Of a DNA stretch of 64,000 bases, positions 28,155-48,426 are shown piece by piece. The notes under the pieces were generated by a model. It was not told where the DNA came from and searched no databases. It saw only the letters and a program-made list of their open reading frames with translations. Numbering within the stretch: position 1 is the first letter of the stretch; the number at the start of each line of letters is the position of its first letter. This stretch comes from Flavobacteriales bacterium (GTDB lineage Bacteria > Bacteroidota > Bacteroidia > Flavobacteriales_D > Sanyastnellaceae). The position numbers and the translations under genes were made by a program. The stretch lies in contig CANEVR010000001.1 in assembly GCA_947442505.1 (NCBI GenBank), positions 30,305 through 94,304 of the forward strand, in the 5' to 3' direction.

Positions 28155-28323
28155 GAAGTCAACAGCATTTTTTAATTAGTAGTCAAGGATGAAATATAAT
28201 ACAAAAATTAAAAATGCTACAGCTATTCATCCACAATTAATCAATAGAATTGACTACATGAGTGCGATCCCAATTGCGCGATCATTATTGTTGGACGCTA
28301 GACATAATCTAACTAGAATGGAA

Positions 28324-28512
28324 TTAAAAAACCACCAACACCAAAACAAACAAGAACAACAATAAAAGAAAAGAAAAAATGGTACACCCCAGTTGAATCA
28401 AATAACTCTCCAACTCCAACTGTAAGGTTTGTTCAAATTCTTCCATACCAAAATGAACCATAAGTACACGCACTACCACGGTTCCAAACATCATAAAAAG
28501 AAATAGACTCAT
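28324..28512 (-). CDS. small two-TM membrane protein, 62 aa, paralog of the 36226..36417 product
   Basis: Hydrophobic-acidic-hydrophobic layout. It aligns with the 63-aa product at 36226..36417 (shared MF.T...R...V..G..F..T...E.ESY.IQL). Conservation of the frame in two copies supports coding. Confidence 0.5.
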   Translation of the reverse strand: MSLFLFMMFGTVVVRVLMVHFGMEEFEQTLQLELESYLIQLGCTIFSFLLLLFLFVLVLVVF

Positions 28513-29034
28513 CGTTTTTAGATTTAGAGGTGAATAAAATGTTATACTTCAACACAACACAAAAAAATCAGATAAAAAAACTTGAGGAAAGGATAGCAGA
28601 TACCCAATACAATTATAATGAAGACAATTGCGGTTTTGTTTCAAAATGAAAGTTCTCGAATTCTCTTATTACGATATTCTTACATTGAAACAAAACTGCA
28701 AAACATCAATATAATTTTGTATTCTCAATCGCTATTCGAAATTCTAACTCCTTATGTCTATCTTATCCGTGTGCTTATTCCTTATCCTGTCCCACTATAT
28801 AGGTCAGATCGTTTGTTGGGTCAATGACGATGATAGACTACCACTATTTGTTGGCGCTTTATTTATCATCAAAATAGCGCTTGCACTTGCACTTGTTTTA
28901 ACAATCTGATATATGGGAGCTGAACTCATTGAGGCTTTAACGCAAGGAAAATTAACGTAATCATGAACTAAAATATTTTGAATCCCTAGAAAAATCTAAT
29001 ATATTTATCACTAAACCGACTAAACCAAAAATAT

Positions 29035-30819
29035 ATGCCAATCCCAGCTAACGCAACATTCAATCAAGTCAAACAATGGCTTGAAAAAAAATTACATGAT
29101 TCGAGAAGCATCTCAGCTGATCGCTCTCAAACACGATCAGTACCTCAAACAAAGGGGATTTATTTTTGGTTTATGAAACAAAGTTGCTACAAGCAATTAT
29201 CATCACTAATCAGCATAACTCCCGTTGAAAATCGAATAACTAAAACAATCAATGGCGAGAAATACGACCTTGTCTATTTAGGTACAGCAGGTGTCCGACC
29301 CAATACAAGCGGAATAAACAATGGTCACCTCAAAGAAAGACTAAAATGGCATTTGGCGAATAATATGTCAATCAGTGCATTTTGCAATGGAACGATGTCA
29401 ACTTTCAGAAGAACCATTGGACCTTTATTGGGAAATGATTTGTTCGGAAACAGTATGCAAGACAGAATCGATCAATTGCTTTACGAAAACTTCATTGTTT
29501 ACTGGATTGAATATCCTGGAAGTTTCAAGGATGTAGTAGAAGCAGTAAATCAAGATGAAGAGATTCTTATCCAAACAATCAGACCATTATTCAACCTTAA
29601 AAATAATCCCAACGCTAATATTGCGCATACATCCACTTATAAAATTCAGCAAAAAAGACTTCAATGTGAAAGTGTGAATAAGGCAAAGTATTGTAATGAC
29701 AAAGGACTTAAAGCCTCAGAACCATTGAAATCAAACCCTCCTACCCCCAAAACGCCAACTACAATTCAATTGGAAATACTGGAATGTGTTGAGTTTAAAG
29801 TGAGGAAGCATGAAAACATTTCACAAGTTTCTTCTAGGATAACCAATTTACCAAATGGCCCCTGCACTATTGAGTTATATAGTAAGGACAGGCAAAATAG
29901 GAAACTATACATCAATGGAAATCCGAGAACCGTACGAAAAGAAGGGAGAACTGTATCGCAATTTTTCAATTCGCCTGATGGCAACACACCAAAATGGCGC
30001 TTGGTTCAAGATGAGATGAATGATAAAAAGAATCCCATTGATATCATCACTGTGCGTGTTTGTAAACTTGGCAGCAGTTCCAATCCAGAAACGAAACCCA
30101 AAGTAAAAACGCAAACTCACAAACCAGTAATGACTTCTGCACAAATTTTTATCGATGATATTATCAAAAAAATTCCAAGTTTAACTGAACCGAAAAATAA
30201 AAAACTACTGATTATTAATTGCTGCGACGCAAAATCCATGCAGCCCAATAATCTTACCAATGCACATCATACAAACTATAACTTCGGGGCAGCCCTTAAT
30301 AATGCGCGGTTGATTCGGTTGACAGCTTACCAGGCAATGAATGCCAATTATTTCAATGGAAAAAAAAGAAATAATACACCTGTCAATCGCGCCTACTTCA
30401 TGGGGGCGATCAATCCAAATAACAGAAGACCTGTTTTTGATACTTACGGCAGCAATCATTCTCCATTTTTTAAACCCAACATCAAAGCACTCTACATTAA
30501 TAAAATACAAAATTCAAACTTACATATTCTTATTATTTCTGGTCTTTACGGGCTTTTACATCATAGTGACTACATCAACGATTATCACTTGGAAATCAAT
30601 AAAGGCAACAATGTGTGGGGAGCGACTATTTTGAATGCAATTAACGAATTCATTATTCAAAACAACATCGATAATCATCATGTTTTTTATTGCCTATCTC
30701 CTACATATCTACCTTTTATAGGGCACCCCAATGCGCATTGGAAGAATTTATGGAGAAATTTAGGCGGACGTGGGTATAATCAAGCCGCAGAATTAATTGA
30801 ATTTTTAAATCGAATCTAA
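29035..30819 (+). CDS. fusion protein: N-terminal GIY-YIG nuclease-like domain, Lys/Pro-rich linker, C-terminal YaaA/DUF328-like domain
   Basis: N-terminus: KGIYFWF ... YDLVYLGTAG ... LKERLKWHL ... EEILIQTIRPLFNLKNN, which matches the GIY / Y-x-G / R / E...N elements of the GIY-YIG fold. C-terminus: LLIINCCDAKS and LHILIISGLYGLLHHSDYINDYHLEI, which closely match the E. coli YaaA signatures ILISPAKT and [24 protein letters not shown]. Confidence 0.75.
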   Translation: MPIPANATFNQVKQWLEKKLHDSRSISADRSQTRSVPQTKGIYFWFMKQSCYKQLSSLISITPVENRITKTINGEKYDLVYLGTAGVRPNTSGINNGHLKERLKWHLANNMSISAFCNGTMSTFRRTIGPLLGNDLFGNSMQDRIDQLLYENFIVYWIEYPGSFKDVVEAVNQDEEILIQTIRPLFNLKNNPNANIAHTSTYKIQQKRLQCESVNKAKYCNDKGLKASEPLKSNPPTPKTPTTIQLEILECVEFKVRKHENISQVSSRITNLPNGPCTIELYSKDRQNRKLYINGNPRTVRKEGRTVSQFFNSPDGNTPKWRLVQDEMNDKKNPIDIITVRVCKLGSSSNPETKPKVKTQTHKPVMTSAQIFIDDIIKKIPSLTEPKNKKLLIINCCDAKSMQPNNLTNAHHTNYNFGAALNNARLIRLTAYQAMNANYFNGKKRNNTPVNRAYFMGAINPNNRRPVFDTYGSNHSPFFKPNIKALYINKIQNSNLHILIISGLYGLLHHSDYINDYHLEINKGNNVWGATILNAINEFIIQNNIDNHHVFYCLSPTYLPFIGHPNAHWKNLWRNLGGRGYNQAAELIEFLNRI

Positions 30820-30849
30820 TTATTCACAGAATACAAATCAATCAAGAAT

Positions 30850-32031
30850 ATGACAGACCAAATTGAGGACACCTTTTTTGAAGACTACTTATCGTTCGAA
30901 AAATTTCCAAATTCATTGTACTACATTGCACCGGGGTTTGATTTTGAACCCCTGTGGAGAATGTCACATTTATGTGACACCTTCTTCTATGCAAATTTGT
31001 ATTACACTTTGGATAAAGTTCAAACCAGTATTTACAATCAACTTCAAAATTCTAAGAATGTCGAAATTGTTTCTTTGGAGATTGATGAGCGCTTTGATGA
31101 AACAACACATTTCGATCTTCATCCCAACTTCAGAAAACATTTCAAAGAAGCATCATCACTGCTCTCTCCAACTGAGCAAAGAGGCTATATCAACACTTTT
31201 GTGCCTGCATTGCATGAAAGTCAATGGATGATCACCGTTAAACTTAGAAGAAAGTCTACAGACCGCATAATAACTCTTTTCTACTTCACTGGTGAAGGTT
31301 TAGCTTCCTATGTTGCACTCAGTAAAAATGGAGCATCTGCACCCCGAGTAATTTGCACCATTCAGTCTGGAATTTTAGAAAGACCCAACGGATTAATGTC
31401 CCGCCTGCTCAACTCGTTCGAAAAAAAGCCTTTATTGTGGATAAGAGGTTTTGAAGAAACTTCTGACAAGTGGCTATACTCAGATGCTTTCAATGAAGAC
31501 AACTTGTACAATCATGTTGGACTCGACTTCATTCATGAATGGATTGTACCTGCATCTTACTTAGGTTTTTATGAGGATGCTCCCAGCAGAAGGTTTTGCA
31601 AAGGGTTTATTACCCAACAGACCTTTGATGAAAATCTTCAAATCCCTAAAGTGAATGTAAATAATCATGTTATCCATTTCAATGGTATTGAAAATATCCA
31701 ATGGCGCAACAACAATGATCATCGCTCTGCACTTTTTATTTTCAAGAATGTTTATGCCCCTTTTGAAACTATATTGGATAAGTGCGATGATGTCAGTTTC
31801 TGGGAAGAATGTTTATACCCATCATTTCGCAAAGACTCCTCTAAGGAATGCATCGATTTTTTGAGAAAAATTGATTCCCTCAACAAATACAAAGAAATTC
31901 ACTTCATTCCTTTCGGTATGGAGGATGAAGGGAAATTGTACCAAGACTTTTTCAATGAAAATCACAATGCGCAATTCCATATGTATCTGCATCGCCCCAT
32001 GGACTTTTATGACTTAAAGCCCGGTCAATAA
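30850..32031 (+). CDS. hypothetical protein, 393 aa, downstream partner of the GIY-YIG::YaaA-like gene
   Basis: The ORF starts 30 nt after the upstream stop on the same strand. No recognised motif. Confidence 0.65.
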   Translation: MTDQIEDTFFEDYLSFEKFPNSLYYIAPGFDFEPLWRMSHLCDTFFYANLYYTLDKVQTSIYNQLQNSKNVEIVSLEIDERFDETTHFDLHPNFRKHFKEASSLLSPTEQRGYINTFVPALHESQWMITVKLRRKSTDRIITLFYFTGEGLASYVALSKNGASAPRVICTIQSGILERPNGLMSRLLNSFEKKPLLWIRGFEETSDKWLYSDAFNEDNLYNHVGLDFIHEWIVPASYLGFYEDAPSRRFCKGFITQQTFDENLQIPKVNVNNHVIHFNGIENIQWRNNNDHRSALFIFKNVYAPFETILDKCDDVSFWEECLYPSFRKDSSKECIDFLRKIDSLNKYKEIHFIPFGMEDEGKLYQDFFNENHNAQFHMYLHRPMDFYDLKPGQ

Positions 32032-32044
32032 TTATGAAGCCTGA

Positions 32045-32224
32045 GCGAAGAAAACAGCAGCGCTAAATTATTACATTCAATCTGGTGAAATAAGAAAAAA
32101 TGATCCTGATTTCGGCATTGAAGCTGAGTTAACACAGGAATCCATTAAGGCTTGTATTCGGTTGGCGAAAGAATTGGGGAAGGAAAGTGAGTTGCCTGAT
32201 TGGATGAAAGAAATAAAAAATTAA
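32045..32224 (+). pseudogene. relic 3' end of a STAND-TPR gene, paralogous to the end of 17182..21348
   Basis: The in-frame translation NYYIQSGEIRKNDPDFGIEAELTQESIKACIRLAKELGKESELPDWMKEIKN* aligns with the last ~55 aa of the 1388-aa protein (RYFLQSAEIKIEDHDLGIEAEATQESIKACIRLAKELGKESELPEWIKENY*). Nt 32114..32203 against 21240..21332 have only a handful of mismatches. An upstream in-frame stop sits at 32042 and there is no start codon, so only the tail survives. Confidence 0.75.
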
Positions 32225-32286
32225 AGTCGAATATTAGCGACATCGCAGTAAACTTTTATATTTATAGAAAACTAAAACTCAAAACA

Positions 32287-32943
32287 ATGGCCTATATCGC
32301 AAAACTCGTCTGCAACCGATTGGGTTGGACAGTTCCCTCTGGACTTGATGCAAAATCTGATAATGTTGAATACGGCCCATTTGAGGCTCAAGTTCATTTT
32401 GGATTTGAAGAATGGCTGTATAATGAAACCCACTCCATTGAATTGGAAGATGGCCGTTACTATTTTGGATTCGTCGAGTGCTTTCGAAATAGTAGAAATT
32501 TCAATCCGATAGCTCAATTACATCTATTCACTCAGTTGTTTTCAAATTCTGCCAACCCTAATCAAGTCAACACCAAAAGATATGTGGGTTCTTTGTCAGG
32601 AGTTTATCCTATTACAAAAGATGTCTACGCTCAAATTATTAACTCTCATCCAGGAATCGTGGATAGAATGAGAAAGGAATTAATCACAGCACTCGCGAAT
32701 GACCCCGTTTTACAAGAAGCCCTTGTCGAATTTGACGAAGCCGCAGAAAATCAAGATTTATTCAATTGTCTTTACGTCCGACGTAATCGACATCGCAAAC
32801 CTGCCGTAGCTCACAATTGGGAGTACCTTCAAATTCAACAAGGATTGCAAAAACACTTACCCAATAATTTTGGACTGACCGAAATCGGGCAGGATTTTAT
32901 TCAGAAGCTCCAAAACAACCAAAACACACCTCAGATTCCATAA
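32287..32943 (+). CDS. hypothetical protein, 219 aa
   Basis: The supplied ORF starts at TTG 32200 inside the relic. ATG 32287 (MAYIAKLVCNRLGWTVPSG ... FGFEEWLYN) is the more likely start. Family not recognised. Confidence 0.6.
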   Translation: MAYIAKLVCNRLGWTVPSGLDAKSDNVEYGPFEAQVHFGFEEWLYNETHSIELEDGRYYFGFVECFRNSRNFNPIAQLHLFTQLFSNSANPNQVNTKRYVGSLSGVYPITKDVYAQIINSHPGIVDRMRKELITALANDPVLQEALVEFDEAAENQDLFNCLYVRRNRHRKPAVAHNWEYLQIQQGLQKHLPNNFGLTEIGQDFIQKLQNNQNTPQIP

Positions 32944-33020
32944 AGAAATAATAGATATCCAAATTTGTTTTTAGTGAGCTTTCTCTCTTGGGATTAAAAG
33001 CATCCTTATTTTCTCAACAA

Positions 33021-34058
33021 TCAAATAAGATGAATCGAATTATTCAAAACCATTTGATATACTTCTTGTCTGTATTGCGTTGTAGGGCTTCCGTTAGCAA
33101 TTAGCTGATGGTTGATTGTCAAATATTGACTAACATTCTGCCCCATTTGAAGCTGAGGTAATCCCAACAAATTAGCTTTATAATTAATCCATTTACGGAA
33201 GAAAGAACTTTTAAACATTTGGATCGCTGCAGCACCAGCAGGACTTGGAAGATTAATAATTCGAATTGTCTTATTTTCTGATTTTAACCACCATACGACT
33301 CCACCTTCTTGTTGCAGAACAGCCATTTGCAAGCCTGTATTATTTATTGGGTAATACGGCCCATTGCCTGAAATGTCACCAGATACTGTAAACGCATCAA
33401 GACCACCACAACAGTCCTCTAATATCCACCTAAACCCAGTCAATGTTGAAACGGAATTCGATAAAAACGAATCTAACTTTCCGCTCGTAAATAGGACAGT
33501 CCTAATCGAAGAACTTGAATCAAATAACCGACTTAAGTTACAATTAACCACAATGTTTTTCAAATCGCTATCCGCAGCACTTCTCATGTTTTTTCGCTGA
33601 ACAAAAGAAAATACATCTGAAATAGAAATATCATGCAATGCTAATTGTTGCTGTAGAAAAGGGATTGCAATATTCCCTTGAATGCCTGGAAATAAATAAT
33701 TCCACAAGCTATTCATGTTCCCATAGAAGAAATGCGTTGGATTATTGTTTTGAACATTTGGATTTGGTAAATTATTCAAAGGCAAATTATTCAAATAGGA
33801 AGATGGAGGAAATGTACCCAAAAGTATAGTATGGCGTTGAAAATCGCAGTCGGCAGCATACAAATCAATGTAAGGGTGTTTCTCTATAGGTCCGGGGGAT
33901 TTAGGCTGCTGAATTAGACCTAAATAAGTATCTAAATGCTCGTAGACATTATTAATAACACTACCCCAATTCCGTATTACCAAATCTGTTAAAGCTGGTG
34001 TATTTGCTACTCCATTTTGGATTAGGAAATTATAAATGGCTTGATTTCTTTTTCTCAT
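33021..34058 (-). CDS. uracil-DNA glycosylase superfamily-like protein (family 6 / deoxyinosine glycosylase-like motifs), enlarged to 345 aa
   Basis: Motifs in the expected order: ILLGTFPPSSY (aa 78-88, nt 33795..33827), FFYGNMNSLWNYL, ISDVFSFVQRKNMRSAADSDL, VLFTSGK, and NLPSPAGAA (aa 269-277). The protein is roughly twice the size of typical family members, with an N-terminal extension and inserts. Confidence 0.6.
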   Translation of the reverse strand: MRKRNQAIYNFLIQNGVANTPALTDLVIRNWGSVINNVYEHLDTYLGLIQQPKSPGPIEKHPYIDLYAADCDFQRHTILLGTFPPSSYLNNLPLNNLPNPNVQNNNPTHFFYGNMNSLWNYLFPGIQGNIAIPFLQQQLALHDISISDVFSFVQRKNMRSAADSDLKNIVVNCNLSRLFDSSSSIRTVLFTSGKLDSFLSNSVSTLTGFRWILEDCCGGLDAFTVSGDISGNGPYYPINNTGLQMAVLQQEGGVVWWLKSENKTIRIINLPSPAGAAAIQMFKSSFFRKWINYKANLLGLPQLQMGQNVSQYLTINHQLIANGSPTTQYRQEVYQMVLNNSIHLI

Positions 34059-34209
34059 AATTATTTATTTCAATTAATCATTTTTATTACGCTAAAACAT
34101 TAACAAGGTAATTAATTTTTTACCCGATCATCGAACTCATCCTCGGGCGTTGATTCGGTTTATTGATTGTACACTTAAACCTAATAGCAGAAAACCCTAC
34201 GATTTCTTC

Positions 34210-34217
34210 TATATTTG
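34210..34217 (+). promoter_or_regulatory. candidate Bacteroidota -7 promoter box (TAtaTTTG) for the EF-hand gene
   Basis: Exact TAnnTTTG match ending 25 nt upstream of ATG 34242. Motif match only. Confidence 0.35.
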
Positions 34218-34241
34218 TTGGAATATATAATACACGCAATC

Positions 34242-35591
34242 ATGGGAAATTTCAAACTTTGGGATGACATAGATTCTGAAGATTTCGAATTATATGAACA
34301 AAAGAAATCAATTATAGCTGATGTTTTAATAAATTTATACCAACAAGAAAAAAATAAACCCAATGTTATTGACGATGTTGAGGTATATCGTTTACAAAAC
34401 AAAACTTCTTTCTTCGGCTCTTCAATTTGGGAGGGAGTAATTCCGATATCCTCAAATGTTATTTTTGGATTGAGGTCAGGCGTGGTTTTTAAGGATGATT
34501 CAATTGTTTTTCTAACCGGTAAAGAGTTCCATAAATATTTTGATATTTCATATTTTAGTGATTTGGATCGGTTAAAAGTAAAAGGGAATCATATCCTTGG
34601 ATATCCCGAAGATATCTATAAAATAACCTGCAGTTCAGAGGACATAGCTTTTATTTTAGAATTCCAAAAACGACTTCGGAAAGCAAAGGAGAAGTTTAAT
34701 TTTAGTACCAGTGAAAGTATTAATAAAGAACACTCTCAATCTGAAATGCAAAAAGATAGGCTTAAGGAATTAAAGGACCAAGAAATGTCGAAATTGGATG
34801 AGAATGGGGATGGAGAAATTGACCTAATGGAATATTTAGATTTTTCAAAAACGCTTCAGAAAAATCAGTCAATAATTGCAGGTATTGACAATTCTCACAT
34901 TCATAAGTTCATAAAGCTGTCAAATTATTTGAAGGAGAAGCATAATAATATTAAATCACTATACAATTCATTAAGAAGTAATACTAAGGAGATATTAGTA
35001 ACCGAAGAAAATTATCTCGATGATGAAATAATTAGGGGAATAGATGAAGATGAGCTCCAAAGTACTCTAATTCTATTGGATTTGGCTGATTCTGCCGACG
35101 AAGCTGGTCATTTTGAAAAGCCCTTCCTAATTGAATTAAATAATGAGGATTTGCTTTACAGAATTGAGTTGATAAAGAATCTCAACAATTTAGTGTACTC
35201 ATACAACTTAATGATTTTTCACTCTTTCAATATGATTAGTTCCTTAGTAAGTGGTGACCTAATTTCATACTATGAGATTTATGAAATGTTTGACAAGCTA
35301 GGTGTTTATAATTCTAATTGGGAAAATGAAGTGGCTCAGAAACTCAAATCCATTGGTAATAAGTTAGACGAACTATTTTCCTCAATTAATGAAATGGAGG
35401 AAAATTTAGTTAAGGAAATGAAAAGTATGAACTATACAATGCACGAAGGTTTCTCAAAACTTACTTCAACTGTAAATAAACAGTTACAAGAAATTGATTC
35501 AACTATGAAGTGGGGGAACTTGATATCGACTATTCAAACTTATCAATTGTACAAGATTAATAAACAAACGAAACCACAGCTGAAAAAATAA
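34242..35591 (+). CDS. EF-hand-containing coiled-coil protein
   Basis: Canonical EF-hand loop DENGDGEIDLMEY. The C-terminal half is helical or coiled coil. I chose the start at ATG 34242 (MGNFKLWDD) over the TTG at 34215. Confidence 0.65.
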   Translation: MGNFKLWDDIDSEDFELYEQKKSIIADVLINLYQQEKNKPNVIDDVEVYRLQNKTSFFGSSIWEGVIPISSNVIFGLRSGVVFKDDSIVFLTGKEFHKYFDISYFSDLDRLKVKGNHILGYPEDIYKITCSSEDIAFILEFQKRLRKAKEKFNFSTSESINKEHSQSEMQKDRLKELKDQEMSKLDENGDGEIDLMEYLDFSKTLQKNQSIIAGIDNSHIHKFIKLSNYLKEKHNNIKSLYNSLRSNTKEILVTEENYLDDEIIRGIDEDELQSTLILLDLADSADEAGHFEKPFLIELNNEDLLYRIELIKNLNNLVYSYNLMIFHSFNMISSLVSGDLISYYEIYEMFDKLGVYNSNWENEVAQKLKSIGNKLDELFSSINEMEENLVKEMKSMNYTMHEGFSKLTSTVNKQLQEIDSTMKWGNLISTIQTYQLYKINKQTKPQLKK

Positions 35592-35757: not shown

Positions 35758-36102
35758 TTAGATAGCATAGTAAACCTTACAAGGTTTATTTCTTTTTCGA
35801 CAATAACGAATTCCGTTCGAAGTACCCTTGCAGAGTCCATCCCAAAAGGCGATGCACAAATCATAATTGTCAATGATCTCTTTGCTCCTCATTACTCCGG
35901 CACTTTTACCATAGGCAGCCCAATTGGGTTCAAAGATCAATGTTGGGATTGAATGAGCAATGGCCCACTCTTCTGCCATTTTGTCTGCCCCTCTGCACCC
36001 TCCAGAAATCAAAAATGTTATTTGAGGCAAATACTCAATAAGAACTTCACTCAACAGTCTTCGATTATCAAAATCTCGACTTTCTATTACAGCAATTTTC
36101 AT
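35758..36102 (-). CDS. SLOG-superfamily protein (DUF2493/YspA-like), 114 aa
   Basis: Motifs ISGGCRGADKMAEEWA, NWAAYGKSAGVMRSKEII and IAFWDGLCKGTSNGI match the DUF2493 pattern (GGARGAD ... W..yGk.AG..RN ... aFWDG.S.GT). Confidence 0.8.
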   Translation of the reverse strand: MKIAVIESRDFDNRRLLSEVLIEYLPQITFLISGGCRGADKMAEEWAIAHSIPTLIFEPNWAAYGKSAGVMRSKEIIDNYDLCIAFWDGLCKGTSNGIRYCRKRNKPCKVYYAI

Positions 36103-36225: not shown

Positions 36226-36417
36226 TCACGGAATCAACATCAACAACAACACGTACACTAAAATGATAACAAAATAATAGTAAGTTGAATAGGACAATTG
36301 AATCACATACGACTCCATCTCCATCCAAAAGGTTTTTCCAAATACATCCCACCCCGCATACACAATAAACAAGCGGGCGAAAATGGTCCAAAACATCAAA
36401 GAGAGTAATCCATTCAT
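36226..36417 (-). CDS. small two-TM membrane protein, 63 aa, paralog of the 28324..28512 product
   Basis: See 28324..28512. I preferred this frame over the overlapping ORF 36104..36391 because only this one has a paralog. Confidence 0.5.
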   Translation of the reverse strand: MNGLLSLMFWTIFARLFIVYAGWDVFGKTFWMEMESYVIQLSYSTYYYFVIILVYVLLLMLIP

Positions 36418-36663
36418 TGTTTAGAAATTTTTAGGGTTAATAAAAAGTTACACTTCTATACAACACTACCAAACAATAAAAACGAAACGAAACATTTACA
36501 CAACTATTCTAATACGCAATCATGCATCCCTCTATTGCATTTCTGCTTTAAAATAACTTTTTCCTCTTTTTTCTAAAATATTTTATCTATTGCAACAAAA
36601 CTGCAAACAATTGGTTGTATATTTAAAATTCTCGCCAAGTAACCCCTTAAATAATATATATAT

Positions 36664-36930
36664 ATGATGAAAAAAATGGTGAAGTTAAGTTTTGGGAAGT
36701 GGAAGGTGGTAAAGTTTAGTGGTAGTTATTATGTGAATTTTTTTGTGGAGAAGGATTTGTTTGTGGTGATTGATGGTGAAAAGTATTTTAAGATTAAAAA
36801 AGGGAAGTTGAGAAGTTTGGGGATGAAGTATTTTGAAAAGAAAAAAGAGGAATCCTATGAAGGTGTTGAATCCTCCCCCGAACTCATCCGTCTCATCAAA
36901 CTTCTCGTCGAACTCAATCAGGCCGCTTAA
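36664..36930 (+). CDS. questionable 88-aa ORF; its first ~63 codons lie in a cytosine-free tract
   Basis: An ORF exists, but the composition is bizarre: no C in 36647..36853, so no Pro, His, Gln, Thr or Ala are encoded there. It could equally be non-coding. Confidence 0.3.
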   Translation: MMKKMVKLSFGKWKVVKFSGSYYVNFFVEKDLFVVIDGEKYFKIKKGKLRSLGMKYFEKKKEESYEGVESSPELIRLIKLLVELNQAA

Positions 36931-36963
36931 TCCATCCCCATACCGTTCTGGTATTCCTGATTA

Positions 36964-37075
36964 TTGAGTAAAGAGTATTGAGTATTCAGTAACGAGTAAC
37001 GAGTAACGAGTAACGAGTAACGAGTATCCAGTATCCAGTATCCAGTATCCAGTATCCAGTATCCAGTAATGAGTA
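36964..37075. repeat. 16 tandem heptamers NNNAGTA (ttg, aag, ttg, ttc, acg x5, tcc x6, atg)
   Basis: Counted directly: 16 x 7 = 112 nt with an invariant AGTA core. There are two internally perfect sub-arrays, (ACGAGTA)5 and (TCCAGTA)6. Confidence 0.95.
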
Positions 37076-37105
37076 CTATCTACTCTCTACTGTGAGCTGT
37101 GAACT

Positions 37106-37217
37106 CATTCCTTCATTCCTTCATTCCTTCATTCCTTCATTCCTTCATTCCTTCATTCCTTCATTCCTTCATTCCTTCATTCCTTCATTCCTGCATCCCT
37201 TCATCCCTTCATCCCTT
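37106..37217. repeat. 14 tandem octamers (CATTCCTT x10, CATTCCTG x1, CATCCCTT x3)
   Basis: Counted directly: 14 x 8 = 112 nt, ending 30 nt before the NADAR start codon. The + strand is G-free across 37102..37192. Confidence 0.95.
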
Positions 37218-37246
37218 TAAGTATAACCCCTAAATACACAAACTTT

Positions 37247-37720
37247 ATGGCAAACATCTCTTTTACAAAAGTCAACCTCCCTTACGGTTGGTTGGGAAAC
37301 ATGGCTCCTTCCACCATCACTTGGAACGGAAAAACCTGGAGAACATGTGAAGCAGTTTTTCAAGCAATGAGATTCTCTAACCCAGAAATCCAAGAAATCA
37401 TTCGGTTGGAAAAAAGTCCCATGTCTTGTAAGATGAAATCAAAAAAGTACAAATCTGAAATGACAGTGGAACCCATGTCCAAACAGGATGTTCAAAACAT
37501 GAAAACCTGTCTCCTTCTCAAATTCACTCAAAACCCGGTTCTACTTCAAAAACTTCTTTTAACCAAAAATCATGTTCTAATTGAAGACATTGGATCAAGG
37601 AAAGGTGAACGTCACCTCTTTTGGGGAATGAGAAACAAAGGAGGTCTGTGGGAAGGAAAGAACATTTTGGGAAAACTTTTGATGGAAGTACGTGAGGAAC
37701 TAAAACATAACGTCTCATAA
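37247..37720 (+). CDS. NADAR (DUF1768/YbiA-like) domain protein
   Basis: Aligns by eye along its whole length with E. coli YbiA: GWLGNMAPSTITWNGKTWRTCEAVFQAMRF vs GDFSNFAAWPIKVDGKTWPTSEHYFQAQKF; SPMSCKM vs SPMVAARM; WEGKNILGKLLMEVREEL vs GKGKNRLGYLLMELREQL. Confidence 0.85.
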   Translation: MANISFTKVNLPYGWLGNMAPSTITWNGKTWRTCEAVFQAMRFSNPEIQEIIRLEKSPMSCKMKSKKYKSEMTVEPMSKQDVQNMKTCLLLKFTQNPVLLQKLLLTKNHVLIEDIGSRKGERHLFWGMRNKGGLWEGKNILGKLLMEVREELKHNVS

Positions 37721-37802
37721 CCCTTGAAGGTCAAAAAGACCTTCCCAACATCTATTTATCTTTTTAAAAAAAATTACCCATCATTTAATAAAAACAAACA
37801 CC

Positions 37803-38924
37803 ATGAAAATCTTTGAAAACTTGTCCGAAGCAAAATCCTTCATCGCGTCATTCATTCATGATCAAAAATGGACCACACAAATCAATAACTACAGTTATCG
37901 TCAATACTACAGAACTCGTATTTATCCCGAAAAACCCTTATTGAACTATTTCAACAAAGTCAGTATCACTCCATCTTCATATACCTTCTCCCGAATTTTT
38001 GATCGTGTCCCTAGGGAAAACCACAATTCCATTATTACTGCCTTTCACGATGGAGACATCGAATATGAGAAAATGGACCTGATCACTGAAGACATCTACT
38101 ATGAAATCACTCAACCACAACCCACCAGTGCCTCTCAATGGTTCACCATCTTCGAATCCTTTTTCTCCTCTTCCTACCTATCAAATAACAACATCCACCC
38201 AAACACCCTCGACCAACTTCTCAATCAAGAAAAAGAAGAAAAAGTCATGAGATGGGAAGAAATCCGACACGACCTCCGAATCATTCTTTCGTTCTCCCTG
38301 TATGATCATGAAGTTCAAATATCATTCTGTGACATGGACAAAAGAAATGACCAATTTGTCCGAACCAATTGGAATCCCGTCACCGCATACTATGAAGGTA
38401 AATTCTTATATCGTCCCAAGTTCTTTGACCGTTTTTGTAATCGACACGATGTCGCATTCATGGAATGGCAAGGTTATCCTCAACATCCTTTGGCCAACCT
38501 GAACGAACAAGTGTTCAACATCCAGTTCAATGAATACAGTGAAGGTCAATGGGATCGCATCTTTTCAAGAAGTCGTTCCAATCTTAAAAAGGAATTAATC
38601 AATGTACTCTCCCACATTCATTTGACCATTGGAAAAGACATCCTGGGGAATTTTACCAATGACTTGAAAACATTATCCCTTCAAGCCCCTACTCCAGAAG
38701 AACAAAAAGACGCCAAAGTCAAAAAAATGTACGGAGACCGATTGTACTTCTATACACCAGAAAACGACATCTTCATCTACTACGGTCCCATCATCACCAG
38801 AGACTATAATGGAACCCAATTTCTTATTTACACCTTGCGCATTCGTGTTGTTCCATTTGACAACCAAAAGTGGGATGAGCGCCATTGCTACGCTCATCCC
38901 TTGGTTTATGAAATGGACAAATAA
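37803..38924 (+). CDS. hypothetical protein, 373 aa, downstream of the NADAR gene
   Basis: Long ORF 82 nt after the NADAR stop on the same strand. No recognised motif. Confidence 0.65.
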   Translation: MKIFENLSEAKSFIASFIHDQKWTTQINNYSYRQYYRTRIYPEKPLLNYFNKVSITPSSYTFSRIFDRVPRENHNSIITAFHDGDIEYEKMDLITEDIYYEITQPQPTSASQWFTIFESFFSSSYLSNNNIHPNTLDQLLNQEKEEKVMRWEEIRHDLRIILSFSLYDHEVQISFCDMDKRNDQFVRTNWNPVTAYYEGKFLYRPKFFDRFCNRHDVAFMEWQGYPQHPLANLNEQVFNIQFNEYSEGQWDRIFSRSRSNLKKELINVLSHIHLTIGKDILGNFTNDLKTLSLQAPTPEEQKDAKVKKMYGDRLYFYTPENDIFIYYGPIITRDYNGTQFLIYTLRIRVVPFDNQKWDERHCYAHPLVYEMDK

Positions 38925-38931
38925 ATCCAAA

Positions 38932-39900
38932 TTACTTCCCAATCGATTGAGCCAGGCGAGAGGACAAGTCCCGAATGTCCTCCACCCTGGCCAATTGTTT
39001 TAGCCAATGTTGGGGTATCTCATCTTCCCCGTAAGCAATACCGGCCAAACCACCCACCACAGCTCCCGTGGTATCCGAATCTTCGCCCAGATTCACTGCT
39101 TTTAGGACCGCTTCTTCAAATGATTGGGTATGCAACAGACACCAAATGGCCGCTTCCAAGGTATCAATGACGTATCCACTGCTCGAAATCGTTTCTATTC
39201 CTCTCTTCCACAAATCACCTGACAATATCCCGGAGAAGTGAATCAACTCCGATGGATCGAGCAACGACTCGCGCTCAATCAAAGACTGGATAGATCCGTT
39301 GGTCTCAGCATAAGCATCATCCACCCGCATGCCTCTCAACATCCGAACGGCCAACTCAATGAAATAAATGCAAGCAAAGATGGATCGTGGATGGCGATGG
39401 GTGATGGAGGATACTTGCCTCACGATTTCCATTCTGTCCTTTCTGTCCATATCAATGGTAAAGAAGGCCAACGGTAAAATGCGCATCAATGACCCATTGC
39501 CATTGCTCATCTCATCTGCCCCTCCTGCCAACGCTGGAGAAACGCCGGCCTCGATATTCTGCAATGCTTTTCTTGTTGCTATCCCAATGTCAAAGACATC
39601 GCCATCTGCGGACCAATACGCTCTGCGGTACCATTGAACAAAACGATTCGAGATATCGTTCAAATCAAAACCACTGATCAACGACTCTGCCAAGCAAAAG
39701 GTCAAGGACGAATCATCCGACCATGTTCCTGGAGGCAAATCATAGGTTCCATACCCCGTCATGTCGCGGACAGGTGACTCCAAAAGGGAGGATCTTGAAC
39801 GAAATTCAAAGGGAACGCCCAAAGCATCTCCAATGGCCACCCCCAAAAGGGCAGATTGCACTTGGTGATTCCAATCACCAGCTGTTTTGTTATTTATCAT
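38932..39900 (-). CDS. ADP-ribosylglycohydrolase (ARH/DraG family)
   Basis: N-terminal LGVAIGDALGVPFEF and C-terminal GEDSDTTGAVVGGLAGIAYG..IP..W are the family's metal-site signatures. Confidence 0.9.
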   Translation of the reverse strand: MINNKTAGDWNHQVQSALLGVAIGDALGVPFEFRSRSSLLESPVRDMTGYGTYDLPPGTWSDDSSLTFCLAESLISGFDLNDISNRFVQWYRRAYWSADGDVFDIGIATRKALQNIEAGVSPALAGGADEMSNGNGSLMRILPLAFFTIDMDRKDRMEIVRQVSSITHRHPRSIFACIYFIELAVRMLRGMRVDDAYAETNGSIQSLIERESLLDPSELIHFSGILSGDLWKRGIETISSSGYVIDTLEAAIWCLLHTQSFEEAVLKAVNLGEDSDTTGAVVGGLAGIAYGEDEIPQHWLKQLARVEDIRDLSSRLAQSIGK

Positions 39901-39928
39901 TGTTAATCATTTACTTATCATTCATTCA

Positions 39929-41596
39929 TCAAAACCCAATCCCCCTCCTACTCACCGTTGTACTATAACTCAACTCTTGTTGACACAATTGACTGAGGCA
40001 ATCCATGCGGTTGATGCGGGGATGAGTGATGGTTTCAAGGACAAACTTCCTGCGGATGTTCATCAATTGACCGCCAGTCAAAGAAAACTGCTGCGCCAAA
40101 GTCTTGACCTCAGGTCGTTTCATGTCGGTCTTAAAGGCACTCCACATCATTCTTTCCTGCGTCGCGGTATCGGGATGACCGATTTCTACCTTCCACAAAA
40201 AGCGTCGCTCAAATGCTTGATCCATGTTTTTGTTCAAATTGGTAGTGGCAACCAAAATACCCTTGAAATTCTCCATCTCTTGCAGGAAAATATTCTGCAT
40301 GGCATTCATCGCCATATCCACGGACCGCTCAACATCCAGTCGCTTTGATATCAAGGCATCGGCTTCATTGAAAAGCAATATGGGCATCCGCTCTTGACCT
40401 TCAGCCCATTTGTAATACTCGTCAAAAATCTTTTTGGCATTGCGCTCTGTATCCCCCAAGTACTTCCCTCGGATTTGACTGATGTCCACCATGAAAACAG
40501 ATCGTTTATTCTTCCGCGCCCATTGCATCACACTGGCTGTTTTGCCTGTACCAGGCTGACCATACAATAAAATGGTAACTCCCTTACCCAATTTTCTTTT
40601 GCTCAATGCTTGAGTCACGCGCTGATACGAAGATTGGCTGAGCAACTTACCCAAGGAATTCAACTGCTGTTCTTCTGCGGCATTAAAAAACAAGATCTCG
40701 TCTGTAATCGTATCCCAACTCAACTTCCTTCCCACAGAACTGCGTCCCTCTCCTTCTTGAGCTGCAGGCGGTGTCTCCCATACGATTTCCGGATAAAAAA
40801 CCCTCATCGCCAAAGGTGTTGCCTTGTACTCTTCGTCAATAAATGGATCAATGCTTGTCCCCAATTTCACCAACGATTGACTAATCAAAACAGCCTCGTC
40901 TTTGTTCAATCGTTGTTTCCAAATACAACGATCCGAATCGGTATCCGACAATGTATCACAAATGGCCTCTAACGGAAGACCGGACTGCGTGCGCATCTGC
41001 TGGTCGACCAAAACCATCAACGCCACAGCATTGCCAATTTCCAACTTCCAATCGTCTTTTATTTTACGCACAAATCCCACCTTGGGATGGGCCTGCATCC
41101 AATCCTCCACATTTTGCTCGACTTTGCGTGCAGTAAGGACCTTGTTCTTGGCCGCCTGCATCCAGGTATTGAACTTCAAGAAGAATTGATGGGTTTCATT
41201 CTTTCCATCGGTCTCCACTTCTTGATTGAACAACCGTTGTAAAAAAGCCGAAGATGCAGCAACGCTATCAAACTGCACCCCATTTTTCCTTTTGGAGGTG
41301 ATGAATCCATCTTGCGTCCACTGATACCACAATGGGTGAATCCATTCCCAATCCCTTATACCCCATTGATAAGTATCCAAAACTCCCATGGAGGACTCCT
41401 CACCCGATCGCAATGTTTTCAAAACAATGCCGGCCAAAAGCAAGGCCTCACGGTCACTGGATAATCCCAATTCACTTTTGAACGATTCAAATTCAGGATG
41501 ATCGTCAAACGACTCATTTAAGAATTTGGTCATCAATTCAAGTCCTGGATATAAGTCCATTTTTTCAAATAAAGGAAGGAAGTTTGTTTTGGGCAT
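39929..41596 (-). CDS. AAA+ ATPase (classical AAA clade) with an unrecognised ~330-aa N-terminal region
   Basis: Walker A LLYGQPGTGKT, Walker B ILLFNEADAL, sensor-1 region VATTNL and the second region of homology DQAFERRF. It ends 28 nt upstream of the ARH gene on the same strand. Confidence 0.85.
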   Translation of the reverse strand: MPKTNFLPLFEKMDLYPGLELMTKFLNESFDDHPEFESFKSELGLSSDREALLLAGIVLKTLRSGEESSMGVLDTYQWGIRDWEWIHPLWYQWTQDGFITSKRKNGVQFDSVAASSAFLQRLFNQEVETDGKNETHQFFLKFNTWMQAAKNKVLTARKVEQNVEDWMQAHPKVGFVRKIKDDWKLEIGNAVALMVLVDQQMRTQSGLPLEAICDTLSDTDSDRCIWKQRLNKDEAVLISQSLVKLGTSIDPFIDEEYKATPLAMRVFYPEIVWETPPAAQEGEGRSSVGRKLSWDTITDEILFFNAAEEQQLNSLGKLLSQSSYQRVTQALSKRKLGKGVTILLYGQPGTGKTASVMQWARKNKRSVFMVDISQIRGKYLGDTERNAKKIFDEYYKWAEGQERMPILLFNEADALISKRLDVERSVDMAMNAMQNIFLQEMENFKGILVATTNLNKNMDQAFERRFLWKVEIGHPDTATQERMMWSAFKTDMKRPEVKTLAQQFSLTGGQLMNIRRKFVLETITHPRINRMDCLSQLCQQELSYSTTVSRRGIGF

Positions 41597-41905
41597 ATGG
41601 GTTATTGTTTGTGATAAATAAAATTCAACACTTTGCGATATTGTTGCAATTTTTAAATATTGTTCAAAACGTTATGATATTTTCTGAATCGACACCATCA
41701 GCTTGACTTAATCATGCTGGCAGGAAAAATCACTTCCTTGCCAACCGACACATCTTTATCTGTGTGATATTCAGAAACAATCTGACAAACGAAAACTTCT
41801 GCGATTTATTGGGAAAGAAAAAAAATAATCCAAATCCCAGAAATGATCACAGATTGCAACAATATCGCAAATCTGTTTCGCAACTTTGCATTCAAATCTT
41901 AATCT

Positions 41906-42151
41906 ATGGCTTTTATCTCTCTCCTCTTTGTTGTTGTTTTTATCATTGTCACGATGGCCTGGGGCGTTTCGCTTTGGATGCGAATTGATGAGAATTTTCC
42001 CTTTCAAGATTTCCCCCTGCGACATGTGTTACTAAAAATTTTCATGATTTGCATTTTCTTTCCAGCCTTGATTTTATTGGCTTTGGTCTTGATTTCATCC
42101 TTGGCTGATAAAAAAACACTTGACAAAAATTTCGATTTATATTATATTTAA
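41906..42151 (+). CDS. possible small membrane protein, 81 aa
   Basis: Two clear hydrophobic helices. No other support. Confidence 0.3.
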   Translation: MAFISLLFVVVFIIVTMAWGVSLWMRIDENFPFQDFPLRHVLLKIFMICIFFPALILLALVLISSLADKKTLDKNFDLYYI

Positions 42152-42529
42152 ATCCATGACGAACTATCCAACAACTTTGGTCTTCTAATTCCCGCTCTCT
42201 TCTTCATCCCTCTCTGTTCCATTCATTGGAGCCTGGGATTTCCATGTTTTTAAAATTCTTAAACCCCAATACATGCAAAATGAAAAACCTGTTTTTTACT
42301 TATTACTCTCTCAACGTCCGACCACTGATACTGTTCCTAATGTTCGGAAAGTCATCAAACTTAATGGCCTTGCCACTACCCCGCTATTATGGGAGGAAGC
42401 CCTTTTGGATGAATCTGAAACTGTACCAGGATTGCCAAGGGTAAAGGTTAGAAACCTATTCGTGTGTTTATGTCTTAATTAAATCAATCTATTCTTTATT
42501 CAATTATTGTTCAACTTAAAAACATCAAC

Positions 42530-42832
42530 ATGAAAAAAACAAGAATCAACTTTTTCTCCATGCAAGTACCTCCGGTGAATGCCGTATTCAAAAAACAATT
42601 CGATGAAATGATGCAGCAAATTCCGGATGGACCTGGATGCTGCGTGGTCATTGGATACTGCGGAACGGAATCTAAAATCATTGATTTGATCAAAACATCT
42701 GATCGCCTGCGCAAAGCCATCAAGGGAGGAACTAAACTTTGGGGAGAGACGAAAATCAGTCGCTACCGATGGATTCAAGAACAAGTGAAACAAAATCAAT
42801 ACGACAGCATTAAAATTCAAATCATCGACTAA
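42530..42832 (+). CDS. hypothetical protein, 100 aa
   Basis: The ORF ends 5 nt before the next same-strand gene. No motif recognised. Confidence 0.5.
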   Translation: MKKTRINFFSMQVPPVNAVFKKQFDEMMQQIPDGPGCCVVIGYCGTESKIIDLIKTSDRLRKAIKGGTKLWGETKISRYRWIQEQVKQNQYDSIKIQIID

Positions 42833-42837
42833 TTCCT

Positions 42838-43872
42838 ATGCAAGAACAAATCATCATCTTTATAAAATCTCCCCTACAGTCCATTTGGTATGCGGAGATC
42901 CCCAATTACCCTGGCGCCCATGACGATTTAGAAATGGTTGACTCAGCGGGTACTTTCTTGTCGCAATTGGACAAAGGACTGGGTATCGTACAAGTCAAAA
43001 TCAGCGATGAGCCCGATGATATGGTCGATGTCATCTTGGAGAAAACAGAAGAGACCAAGGACGAAAAAGGAGCCCACTACAATATCGCTTCTGGCTACCA
43101 ACACGTGGATTCTATTTGGCTATGTGGAGTTTTGGAATATGTATTCGGAACATTCCCTAACCACCTTTATTTGGAAATACTCCCCATACAGGAATGCAGA
43201 GACATCACTGAGGAGGCCTTTTTCAAAGCGGGTCGCCATTACCAATTGGATGAGAACAGAGTGAACAGAGAATGGAATTTGTTGTCCCGAACCAATAAGT
43301 GGCGGTTCTGGCATTTCTTAGCTTTATGGGCAGATTACGCCAATGAGCGGAAAATGGGTTGGATGCCAGGGGATAGACAAATGTTTCAATTCGAAAGTTT
43401 TAGATATTTCATGCCAGAGAATAAACTCAAGAACTGCCTGACTTTCCCTGAGCTATATATTTCTACCACCAAAAACTTTCCTTATCAATTCCCCATTGTT
43501 ATCAACCATGAAAATATCCAAGAACTAAAAGCGTTCATTCAGGATTATTTCAAAAACGAGGTACCTTTTGTTGAAGTCTATTCCTATCTCGATGTGGCTT
43601 GGAGCAAATTGGAAGTTCAAGAGGCAGATGTATATATTGAAGATGTCATGGAAAAGGCCTTTAACATAACGCAGTGGGATTACAACGAGATTGATTTGTG
43701 GCGAAGGGTTGTTGGCAAAAAAGACAAATGGTCCAAGGCACTGCTGTATGGCAATTTGAATATGCATCAAAAGGAACAAATGGAAGAATTGGAAAACACC
43801 ATTCACCAAACACCCCCTAGCATCAATGAGAAAGTGTGGTGGGAGTTGCATGAAAAAATGAAAAAACAATAA
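42838..43872 (+). CDS. hypothetical protein, 344 aa
   Basis: Long ORF, tightly spaced between the 100-aa ORF and the DUF2779 gene. No motif recognised. Confidence 0.65.
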   Translation: MQEQIIIFIKSPLQSIWYAEIPNYPGAHDDLEMVDSAGTFLSQLDKGLGIVQVKISDEPDDMVDVILEKTEETKDEKGAHYNIASGYQHVDSIWLCGVLEYVFGTFPNHLYLEILPIQECRDITEEAFFKAGRHYQLDENRVNREWNLLSRTNKWRFWHFLALWADYANERKMGWMPGDRQMFQFESFRYFMPENKLKNCLTFPELYISTTKNFPYQFPIVINHENIQELKAFIQDYFKNEVPFVEVYSYLDVAWSKLEVQEADVYIEDVMEKAFNITQWDYNEIDLWRRVVGKKDKWSKALLYGNLNMHQKEQMEELENTIHQTPPSINEKVWWELHEKMKKQ

Positions 43873-43892
43873 GAACAAACAAAAAAAACAAT

Positions 43893-45830: not shown

Positions 45831-45838
45831 AATCAAAG

Positions 45839-47089: not shown

Positions 47090-47209
47090 TGCGCTTTATT
47101 TGATAAGTAGGAAATGTAGGTATAGTTACACTTGAACAGAAAAATTTATAAAATGATGTCGCTCCGCTGGAGCTTTGATCTAGGTTCTGACGCTAATTAT
47201 AATCAGTAA

Positions 47210-47229
47210 GGGCGTATTGCAATACGCCC
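47210..47229. repeat. perfect 20-bp palindrome GGGCGTATTGCAATACGCCC
   Basis: Read directly. The reverse complement of the first 10 nt equals the last 10 nt. It is a GC-rich island in an AT-rich intergenic region. Confidence 0.9.
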
Positions 47230-47286
47230 CTACCCCGGAGCTAACGAAATCTCAAAAAGAAGTTAGAATTAATCCCCAACTACTTA

Positions 47287-48360: not shown

Positions 48361-48426
48361 AGCGCAAATATCGGATAAATACTTTAATTACACAATCCGA
48401 TATTCATCTATTTTCAAGCTTGATTC

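Follow-up and report, generated by a model that had tools for sequence, protein, structure and literature searches.

Depletion of target motifs is a known route of escape from sequence-specific enzymes: restriction sites are avoided, ACA- or GCU-poor transcripts escape MazF or MqsR, and viruses under ZAP or APOBEC pressure are depleted of CpG or TC. Here we describe a 64,000-nucleotide (nt) stretch of DNA from a Flavobacteriales bacterium (contig CANEVR010000001.1, positions 30,305 to 94,304; the whole stretch is hereafter called the window) in which 207 consecutive nucleotides contain no cytosine (C). This tract (36647..36853, + strand) covers the last 17 nt of a leader and codons 1–63 of an open reading frame (ORF) for an 88-residue protein, the small gene, which is followed directly by a gene for a NADAR-domain protein. 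As in target-motif avoidance, a component of the nucleic acid is missing at the synonymous and partly at the amino acid level, in a toxin-antitoxin or defence context. Unlike the known examples, in which motifs of 3–6 nt are depleted and the cognate enzyme is known, it is a whole base that is absent here, over about 200 nt, on one strand and in the coding segment of one domain. No natural, conserved coding segment durably lacking one of the four bases was found described in the literature. We would class the tract as an extreme form of target or motif avoidance, set in a NADAR-associated module that is itself new, and it may well be the mark of something so far undescribed.

NADAR proteins strip ADP-ribose from guanine (G), and serve either as antitoxins that counter DarT1 and YarT or as anti-defence enzymes of phages (PMC11543638, PMC11125620, PMC11825919). 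A 2026 report describes the reversal of cytidine ADP-ribosylation on DNA and RNA by NADAR and YbiA-type enzymes; the C-modifying ADP-ribosyltransferases (ARTs) that have been described, ScARP and Scabin, modify G as well (PMC12945103). DS-32, a pair of NADAR and phosphoribosyltransferase (PRTase), is a validated anti-phage system (bioRxiv 10.1101/2025.01.08.631726). The locus studied here resembles the DarT1-NADAR, YbiA-YarT and DS-32 modules in having a stand-alone NADAR in a defence island with a tightly linked partner gene. The first of these requires an adjacent DarT (PMC11543638), whereas no DarT (DUF4433) or ART domain was found with Pfam and PADLOC in ten ORFs from 33.0 to 48.4 kb. YarT is a minimal ART of about 114 residues with an H-Y-E motif, encoded after YbiA (PMC11125620), whereas here the partner lies upstream of the NADAR gene. 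The small protein has no H-Y-E motif because its sequence in the window lacks histidine, its modelled five strands and helices gave no ART-like Foldseek match, and no ART domain was detected by sequence in the 373-residue protein encoded downstream. The PRTase partner of DS-32 has no counterpart found beside the NADAR gene (bioRxiv 10.1101/2025.01.08.631726). Near the small ORF, the scanned neighbouring ORFs likewise gave no YarT-like ART, PRTase, deaminase or reverse transcriptase.

The lack of C was first pointed out in a sequence-only reading of the window, and a script recount gave the same bounds and the same zero (A77 T71 G59 C0), with the flanking Cs at 36646 on the 5' side (in AACCCC) and at 36854 on the 3' side. 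The window as a whole has 21.7% C. At this frequency the expected number of 207-nt C-free tracts is ~1e-18 (N*p*(1-p)^207, our own arithmetic), and the second-longest C-free run in the window has 48 nt, near chance level for 64 kb, which bears out the earlier statement that the tract is not due to chance. Its G content is 29% and its GC skew +1. The first C of the small ORF falls in codon 64, and the 63 residues encoded by the tract include no Pro, His, Gln, Thr or Ala (chance ~6e-7), again as first read. With codon usage taken from 26 long ORFs of the window, the protein as it stands would be expected to require 13.8 ± 2.9 Cs in 62 codons, where none was observed (P of no C given the protein ~2e-8); the joint probability of the amino acid and the synonymous choice is ~1e-15. 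All four serine codons of the tract are AGT, which makes up 21% of serine codons in the window, arginine is encoded by AGA, and leucine is encoded by TTA and TTG only. Because of both improbabilities, that of the missing residues and that of the missing C given the protein, amino acid choice and synonymous codons in the tract both avoid C. The suggestion of an extreme codon constraint is thus true as a description (Ser AGT, Leu TTR, Arg AGR), and offers no explanation. The exclusion also opposes the local strand trend, since the + strand around the tract otherwise has more C than G. Given the protein, the synonymous bias of the N-domain segment is z -4.6 for C and +4.6 for G, that of the NADAR gene is +3.1 and -4.2, and that of the gene for the 373-residue protein is +7.6 and -5.5. 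This last gene is the most C-enriched ORF of the window and among the most G-depleted, opposite to the bias of the N-domain.

It is well supported that the tract consists of the end of a 5' leader and the coding segment of the beta-rich N-terminal domain (N-domain) of a genuine 88-residue gene. The small gene (36664..36930, +) encodes a conserved N-domain in codons 1–63 (MMKKMV.L.FGK.KVVKFSG.YYVNF.VEK.LFV.ID.EKY.KIKKGKLRS.GMK), a variable linker and a C-terminal helix. Sequence comparison marks it as translated and under purifying selection, because it differs from the related locus L001 (80% identity in the N-domain) by 18 synonymous and 13 non-synonymous codons. An AlphaFold2 (AF2) model from 11 sequences (predicted local distance difference test score, pLDDT, 73) has five strands (residues 6–44), a helix at 46–51, a disordered stretch at 60–64 and a helix at 72–87, and since the disordered linker is placed at residues 60–64, the tract ends at a domain boundary of the predicted structure. 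From codon 64 to the stop (36853..36930, +) the composition changes, as had been remarked before, to 34% C and 16% G, and the C-terminal tails are of mutually unrelated types between clades. Homologs were sought among 5.8 billion proteins, by a profile search of 1.84 billion representatives, and by genome and metagenome scans. In all of these the family is small and found solely in metagenomes of Bacteroidota/Flavobacteriales type; the window itself encodes a type IX secretion system sorting domain. No homolog was present in the phage, plasmid and viral-contig collections searched, and an origin of the small gene in a mobile element was set aside on this ground. The protein had no match in Pfam, NCBIfam or a PDB profile search, and Foldseek against PDB returned nothing below E=1. 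No ribbon-helix-helix, helix-turn-helix, AbrB/MazE or Phd/YefM fold was seen in these searches (Pfam, NCBIfam, PDB sequence, and Foldseek with the moderate model of pLDDT 73).

Although their tails are otherwise unrelated, 7 of 12 distinct family sequences end in Ala-Ala, which does not stand at the end of any of 55 long ORFs of the window. In the window this is the end of ...NQAA (36925..36930); the other sequences that share it are P0002, P0003, P0005, P0006, P0007 and L027, and the endings within the family are ..NQAA, ..FSAA, ..FYAA, ..NIAA, ..FNAA, ..RQAA and ..ETAA. By analogy, this terminus is a candidate degron of the ClpX/ssrA type that may make the small protein labile. Such an end resembles the 'LAA' of ssrA and is one of several likenesses to type II antitoxins and autoregulators, which are also small, basic and first in their operon, with a folded N-domain and a variable or disordered C-terminus; a motif shared by the upstream regions of three genes of the locus (see below) would suit an operator. 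Unlike in those systems, the partner is a NADAR, normally an antidote and not a toxin, and no known DNA-binding fold was matched.

To follow the exclusion of C in relatives, related loci (numbered with L, 118 kb in all) were fetched. A C-free tract of 203–205 nt stands at the equivalent site in L007, L019–L022 and L025, independent assemblies from JGI, Logan/SRA and NCBI metagenomes. Of these, L007 has 97% protein identity, L025 has an identical protein in different flanks, and L019–L022 share 87.6% nucleotide identity with the window over the locus (about 12% diverged). Because the tract recurs in independent assemblies from different projects, an assembly artefact, for which a check had been proposed, is excluded. 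Across the 118 kb, C-free runs of at least 60 nt are confined to the small-gene homologs with one exception, a 101-nt intergenic run in L011 (2715..2815), which lacks G when read along the flanking - strand genes.

The window and L019 were also compared by their substitutions. In the N-domain there are 13, of which 9 are A<->G and 4 are G<->T, and none involves C. Outside it, in the tail, the NADAR gene and the gene of the 373-residue protein, C is involved in 52% of 188 substitutions, and in the tail of the small ORF in 8 of 13. The exclusion of C from the N-domain is thus ongoing: substitutions in these lineages never create a C. At greater distance it weakens by degrees. With 75–80% protein identity there are 4 Cs in 186 nt (L001, L006 and L008, where about 17 are expected given the protein), and with 57–60% there are 5–9 (8–9 in L009 and L026, against about 18 expected; 5 in L027, at 57% identity). 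The most distant homologs are near their expected C content (L014, 15 in 186 nt against 19; L011, 31 against 30), and L015 and L018 come from loci so C-poor that avoidance is hard to judge. The succession of a C-poor N-domain and a C-richer, G-poor tail and spacer recurs in L001, L014, L019 and L026. We conclude firmly that a constraint at the nucleotide level durably excludes C from the sense strand of the N-domain segment.

This comparison also bears on the first of the explanations offered earlier, in which the tract would be the footprint of strand-specific C-to-T deamination or hypermutation of a once normal sequence. The homologs are C-poor too, and no 'normal' ancestor appears in the close clades. 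An alignment check of Ts against Cs had been proposed: the window and L001 differ in 31 codons, and in only 2 of these does a C there stand against a T here; A<->G changes dominate, and the lineage of the window has mainly undergone A-to-G changes at third positions. Two of the four Cs of L001 face states other than T (Ala21 GCG against Ser AGT; Arg7 CGA against Lys AAG; both multi-step changes). All four, including synonymous TTC and CTA/CTT, are kept in L001, L003, L006 and L008. The edge of the tract moreover falls on the protein-domain boundary and not on that of a transcription unit. The deamination footprint is therefore not upheld. Hypermutation driven by a diversity-generating retroelement or a deaminase was discarded for the same codon count and for the absence of a reverse transcriptase or deaminase from the scanned neighbours.

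The second earlier explanation was of an RNA or strand selected to lack C. The + strand RNA of the tract folds with a minimum free energy (MFE) of -17.2 kcal/mol; 852 windows of equal length average -41.4, and the tract lies at their 0.7th percentile. For the - strand RNA the MFE is 0. Since the structure is no lower than that of dinucleotide shuffles (z -0.79), the RNA is special in its composition only. The proposal of selection against C is the one that the data favour, and the + strand RNA lies among the least structured 1% of windows; the sponge or template that had been suggested is not, because the segment codes for protein under purifying selection (the 18 synonymous against 13 non-synonymous differences given above). 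Synthetic G-less and C-less cassettes are likewise transcribed stretches of about 200 nt that lack one nucleotide, form no G-C pairs and make one nucleoside triphosphate dispensable, but they are engineered tools, whereas the tract is natural, protein-coding and evolutionarily maintained.

Several further ideas drawn from the sequence were rejected. Rfam gave no match at gathering score in the whole window, which together with the shuffle result speaks against a known structured RNA family. Pairing of the G-rich tract with the C-rich tail and spacer was dropped, as shuffles of the 631-nt region from the small ORF to the NADAR gene fold slightly better than the region itself (z +1.42). A perfect 14-nt inverted repeat (TTCCTCTTTTTTCT at 36561..36574 and AGAAAAAAGAGGAA at 36839..36852) links the region upstream of the candidate promoter with the 3' end of the tract. 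Neither this pair nor the GGGATGAAG / CTTCATCCC pairs are conserved in L019 or L025, and the 14-nt repeat is probably fortuitous. The G-runs of the tract are, by eye, not conserved in L001, which led us to discard a G-quadruplex. An avoidance of tRNAs that carry G in the anticodon was discounted by reasoning: G34 tRNAs read the codons for Phe, Tyr, Asn, Asp, Ser (AGT) and Ile (ATT), and these are abundant in the tract.

Upstream of the small ORF, a candidate -7 box, TATATTTA (36618..36625, +), of the TAnnTTTG type that is the consensus of Bacteroidetes -7 promoter elements, was read from the sequence; it has the form TATATTTG in L001 and L025 and TACCTTTG in L019. It would be a -7 promoter element about 14 nt upstream of a second motif, and if so, the transcript opens with about 20 C-rich nt (C 38%) and then has no C for 207 nt. 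That motif, TAACCCCTTAAA (36640..36651, +), stands 12 nt upstream of the ATG of the small ORF, and its run of Cs forms the 5' edge of the tract. It is conserved in L001, L019 and L025, with a variant TAAAACCTAAA in L026. A second copy, TAACCCCTAAA (37224..37234, +), lies 12 nt upstream of the NADAR ATG, also in L019; in L026 it reads TAAACCTTAAA, which co-varies with TAAAACCTAAA ahead of the small ORF. A third, TAACCCTAAA (36439..36430, -), precedes the ATG of a divergent 63-residue ORF, again by 12 nt. The motif TAACCC(C)T(T)AAA, or TAACCCCT(T)AAA, thus stands exactly 12 nt before three ATGs, and only one other copy occurs in the 64 kb (7754). This placement suggests a shared cis-regulatory site, a candidate operator or translational signal. 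The 14-mer GTAACCCCTTAAAT was rejected as a genome-wide signal, as it occurs at chance frequency with up to 3 mismatches and only the shorter motif that tolerates indels is specific to the locus. Scans of the locus for sigma-70 promoters and intrinsic terminators stayed at chance level with models that are unsuited to Bacteroidota.

Between the small ORF and the NADAR gene lies a 316-nt spacer (36931..37246) with 28% C, 11% G and 73 YC dinucleotides (Y, pyrimidine), against 0 YC in the tract. It contains a tandem array of 15 heptamers, GAGTAAC and CAGTATC units (36962..37068, +), and an array of 14 octamers TCATTCCT (37102..37217, +; C 40%, G 1%, 44 YC). The mirror-image G-free tract that had been noticed in the octamer array is real and spans 91 nt (37102..37192). 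The heptamer array differs in copy number and unit sequence between strains (L007, L019, L025), L007 having other heptamer variants, and the spacer of L019 and L025 has a 74-nt G-free run of CTCTTT type plus fewer octamers. The spacer is thus a hot spot of strain-variable short tandem repeats, with long G-free runs in all versions. In L001, L026 and L027 it is short (32–98 nt) and only mildly C-rich.

The NADAR gene itself (157 residues, 37247..37720, +) is YbiA-like and matches Pfam PF08719 with E 1.2e-22 (81.4 bits, where the gathering score is 35.1; positions 2–163 of 163 are covered); matches to TIGR02464 and to NCBIfam DS32_2 ('NADAR family anti-phage protein') were below cut-offs. Its sole PDB sequence match is E. 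coli YbiA (2b3w, E 1e-13), and the protein has no extension. YbiA-type proteins are told from the BC4488/DarG1 and phage gp30.3 types by a domain that is 'naked' and has a Glu in its last strand (PMC11125620). The Glu in ..KGERHLFWG aligns with the Glu of YbiA in ..TENDAYWG, a putative catalytic position. In at least 14 loci of several clades (L001, L002, L004, L006, L007, L008, L014, L015, L019–L022, L025 and L026) the small ORF has a NADAR gene as its immediate 3' neighbour, and among loci with sufficient downstream DNA this neighbour is missing in L011 and L027 only. Next comes the 373-residue protein (37803..38924, +), a recurrent neighbour of the small ORF without a recognisable domain (no match in Pfam, NCBIfam, PADLOC or PDB) and with an uninformative single-sequence AF2 model (pLDDT 32). 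It has homologs of 31% identity in L027 and L008, a partial one in L026 and a weak one in L015, and the gene order of L027 is small ORF, a 166-residue protein, and a 391-residue homolog of the 373-residue protein. G-free runs of 56 nt (38155..38210) and 66 nt (37739..37804) lie in or abut this gene.

We infer that selection and not mutation bias excludes C. Our tentative preference, possible rather than probable, goes to avoidance of a target: the segment would have been cleared of C under a cytosine-directed activity, which would keep a labile, antitoxin- or regulator-like protein expressible. The mRNA of the N-domain and the non-template DNA would present no cytosine to such an activity, for which base ADP-ribosylation, deamination and a C-specific RNase are candidates, whether it belonged to the module or was countered by it. 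The small protein would still be made while the activity was on, and the dispensable, variable tail and the downstream genes would stay unprotected. The activity, its specificity for C and this role of the small protein we infer in turn. Three things speak for target avoidance: the zero is absolute and maintained, the constraint overrides amino acid choice, and the setting is one of ADP-ribose enzymes. An absolute zero fits a situation in which every C is a liability better than readings for which C-poverty suffices. The location is suggestive, the small gene being a conserved partner of a YbiA-like NADAR in an island rich in NAD and ADP-ribose enzymes. If the exclusion is selected, the pressure at the nucleotide level is strong enough to dictate amino acid usage and points to an agent that discriminates a single base.

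Several points weigh against target avoidance. No cytosine-specific enzyme was identified at the locus, and the 373-residue partner gave no recognisable domain in the four databases named above. The G-rich tract (29% G) would not escape ScARP or Scabin, because both modify G as well. Since the NADAR gene and the tail are not C-depleted, protection would be limited to the N-domain. The avoidance fades in distant homologs, in L014 (15 against 19 expected) though a NADAR is present, and in L011 (31 against 30). L027 is strongly C-depleted yet has no adjoining NADAR, so the link to NADAR is by association only. Finally, the data do not formally separate selection from a strong local mutation bias. 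A more specific form of target avoidance, which we regard as doubtful, is a 'base-level stealth' in which the base is purged from the segment of a labile regulator or antitoxin, hiding its mRNA or non-template strand from a cytosine-specific effector whose action the adjacent NADAR reverses; the effector could be a new C-directed ART or deaminase, possibly of the family of the 373-residue protein. If so, the tract would point to a cytosine-targeting immune or toxin system that has yet to be discovered, and single-base exclusion would have its first natural example as an immunity strategy. The locus may offer a way to a physiological role of C-directed base modification, or to a new Rho- or nucleotide-dependent attenuation in Bacteroidota, and coding tracts free of a single base could serve as a handle for the discovery of base-specific systems that target nucleic acids.

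Of the alternatives, which we rank below target avoidance in the order in which they follow, the first concerns transcription termination and seems to us improbable. Rho prefers C-rich, G-poor, unstructured RNA and its primary site binds YC; the tract could be a Rho-proof, structure-free 5' mRNA segment, so that the first ~230 nt are transcribed and accessible with or without ribosomes, and the C-rich, G-free tail and spacer a rut-like loading site, an attenuator that gates transcription into the NADAR gene. The contrast in YC dinucleotides (0 in the tract, 73 in the 316-nt spacer), the octamer array with 40% C and 1% G, and the weak folding of the tract RNA (-17.2 kcal/mol, 0.7th percentile, and 0 for the - strand) all suit such a device, as does the recurrence of the C-poor to C-richer, G-poor succession in L001, L014, L019 and L026; G-free pyrimidine repeats are kept in the spacers of all relatives of the window clade despite their differing sequences. 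An absolute zero would be needless here, as a few Cs (as in L001) would be enough, yet amino acid choice has been sacrificed. The tract is no less structured than shuffled sequences of equal composition (z -0.79), and the limit of the constraint follows the protein domain and not how far the RNA extends from its 5' end. The presumed transcript begins with ~20 nt that are C-rich (38%), and the spacers of L001, L026 and L027 are short (32–98 nt) and mildly C-rich. Leader attenuators that sense pyrimidines are well known (UTP-sensitive pausing at pyrBI, CTP-sensitive reiterative transcription at pyrG), as is Rho-dependent leader attenuation. The locus resembles them in its short upstream ORF, its nucleotide-biased spacer before the gene that would be regulated and its sharp switch from C-free to C-rich. 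It differs from them in its upstream ORF, the product of which is a conserved folded domain and not an arbitrary leader peptide; moreover, the terminator scan found no hairpin, and nothing links the locus to pyrimidine metabolism. An unlikely alternative places the constraint on the other strand. The - (template) strand is G-free over the tract, as follows directly from the count of C, and this could make a template or transferred single strand immune to a guanine-specific ART that acts on single-stranded DNA (DarT1- or YarT-like), or could suppress antisense expression, since a G-free strand has no ATG, GTG or TTG starts and no TTTG or TAnnTTTG elements. NADARs reverse the ADP-ribosylation of G by DarT1, ScARP and YarT on single-stranded DNA, ADP-ribosyl-guanine being their best-established substrate; no - strand ORF overlaps the tract, and reading on in the antisense direction one meets two - strand genes, the conserved 63-residue ORF and a SLOG gene. 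Protection would be confined to 207 nt, however, as the template strands of the NADAR gene and of all other genes are not G-free. The non-template strand, exposed in transcription, is G-rich and thus a good target for a G-specific enzyme, and no DarT-like gene was found nearby (ten ORFs, Pfam and PADLOC). Antisense silencing, for which we know of no precedent, would leave the choice of this gene unexplained.

A persistent, local and strand-specific mutational process that holds C near zero without selection, a chronic form of the deamination proposed earlier, is in our view still more unlikely. The non-template strand of a G-rich segment close to a promoter and prone to R-loops could, for example, undergo C-to-U deamination again and again. 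G-rich RNA on a C-rich template favours R-loops and the tract has a GC skew of +1 beside the candidate promoter; an extreme C-to-T bias, too, would lead one to expect no T-to-C fixation among the 13 substitutions. Such a process would nevertheless have to stop at the domain boundary while the tail of the same transcript has 34% C, and to act among neighbours that are C-enriched on the same strand. The Ts of the window are seldom Cs in homologs (2 of 31 differing codons), the differences Ala21 GCG/Ser AGT and Arg7 CGA/Lys AAG are not C-to-T paths, L001, L003, L006 and L008 share the four Cs of their clade, and the scanned neighbouring ORFs yielded no deaminase or reverse transcriptase. That the tract is a by-product of amino acid composition or AT-rich codon usage in a protein rich in Lys, Val, Phe and Gly, or of chance, assembly or sequencing, is effectively refuted. 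Many residues of the family have codons that lack C, and L011 and L014 are near their expected C content; against this stand the P of ~2e-8 given the protein and the joint ~1e-15, the recovery of the tract in independent assemblies, and the repetition of the synonymous exclusion in several clades.

By the families encoded there, the surroundings of the small gene appear to be a defence or conflict island. The divergent 63-residue hydrophobic ORF (36226..36417, -) is a called gene in L019 (98% identity over 45 residues) and may encode a membrane peptide of the module; a paralog of about 40% identity lies at ~28372..28512 (-), some 8 kb off. Beyond it is a YAcAr/SLOG-family gene (114 residues, 35758..36102, -; Pfam PF10686, E 3.8e-13), and on the other side of the 373-residue protein an ADP-ribosylglycohydrolase gene (322 residues, 38932..39900, -; Pfam PF03747, E 1.8e-80), both in the equivalent place in L019. 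The stretches 22707..35591 and 38932..49665 appear to form together a large defence environment with a 1815-residue NACHT/STAND protein, GIY-YIG_2 proteins including a GIY-YIG_2 + YaaA-like one, an IetA/TRIP13-like AAA ATPase, the ADP-ribosylglycohydrolase, DUF6717, a DUF2779/Cas4-like protein, a Fic protein and a DUF4143 ATPase. These gene families are reshuffled in L001, L006 and L019, and in L019 a WYL-domain gene that the window does not have follows the AAA ATPase. An unannotated family of 160–166 residues (L027 370..870; L019 3194..3676, -; 39% mutual identity) replaces NADAR right after the small ORF in L027 and stands about 1.3 kb upstream of the small ORF in L019; it is a further member that recurs in the module. 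At the 3' end of the Fic-domain gene (47407..48360, -) there is a G-free tract of 161 nt (47267..47427), an array of about 8 copies of the 16-mer ATCACTTCATCTCCTC, which, unlike the C-free tract, is explained by low-complexity repetition.

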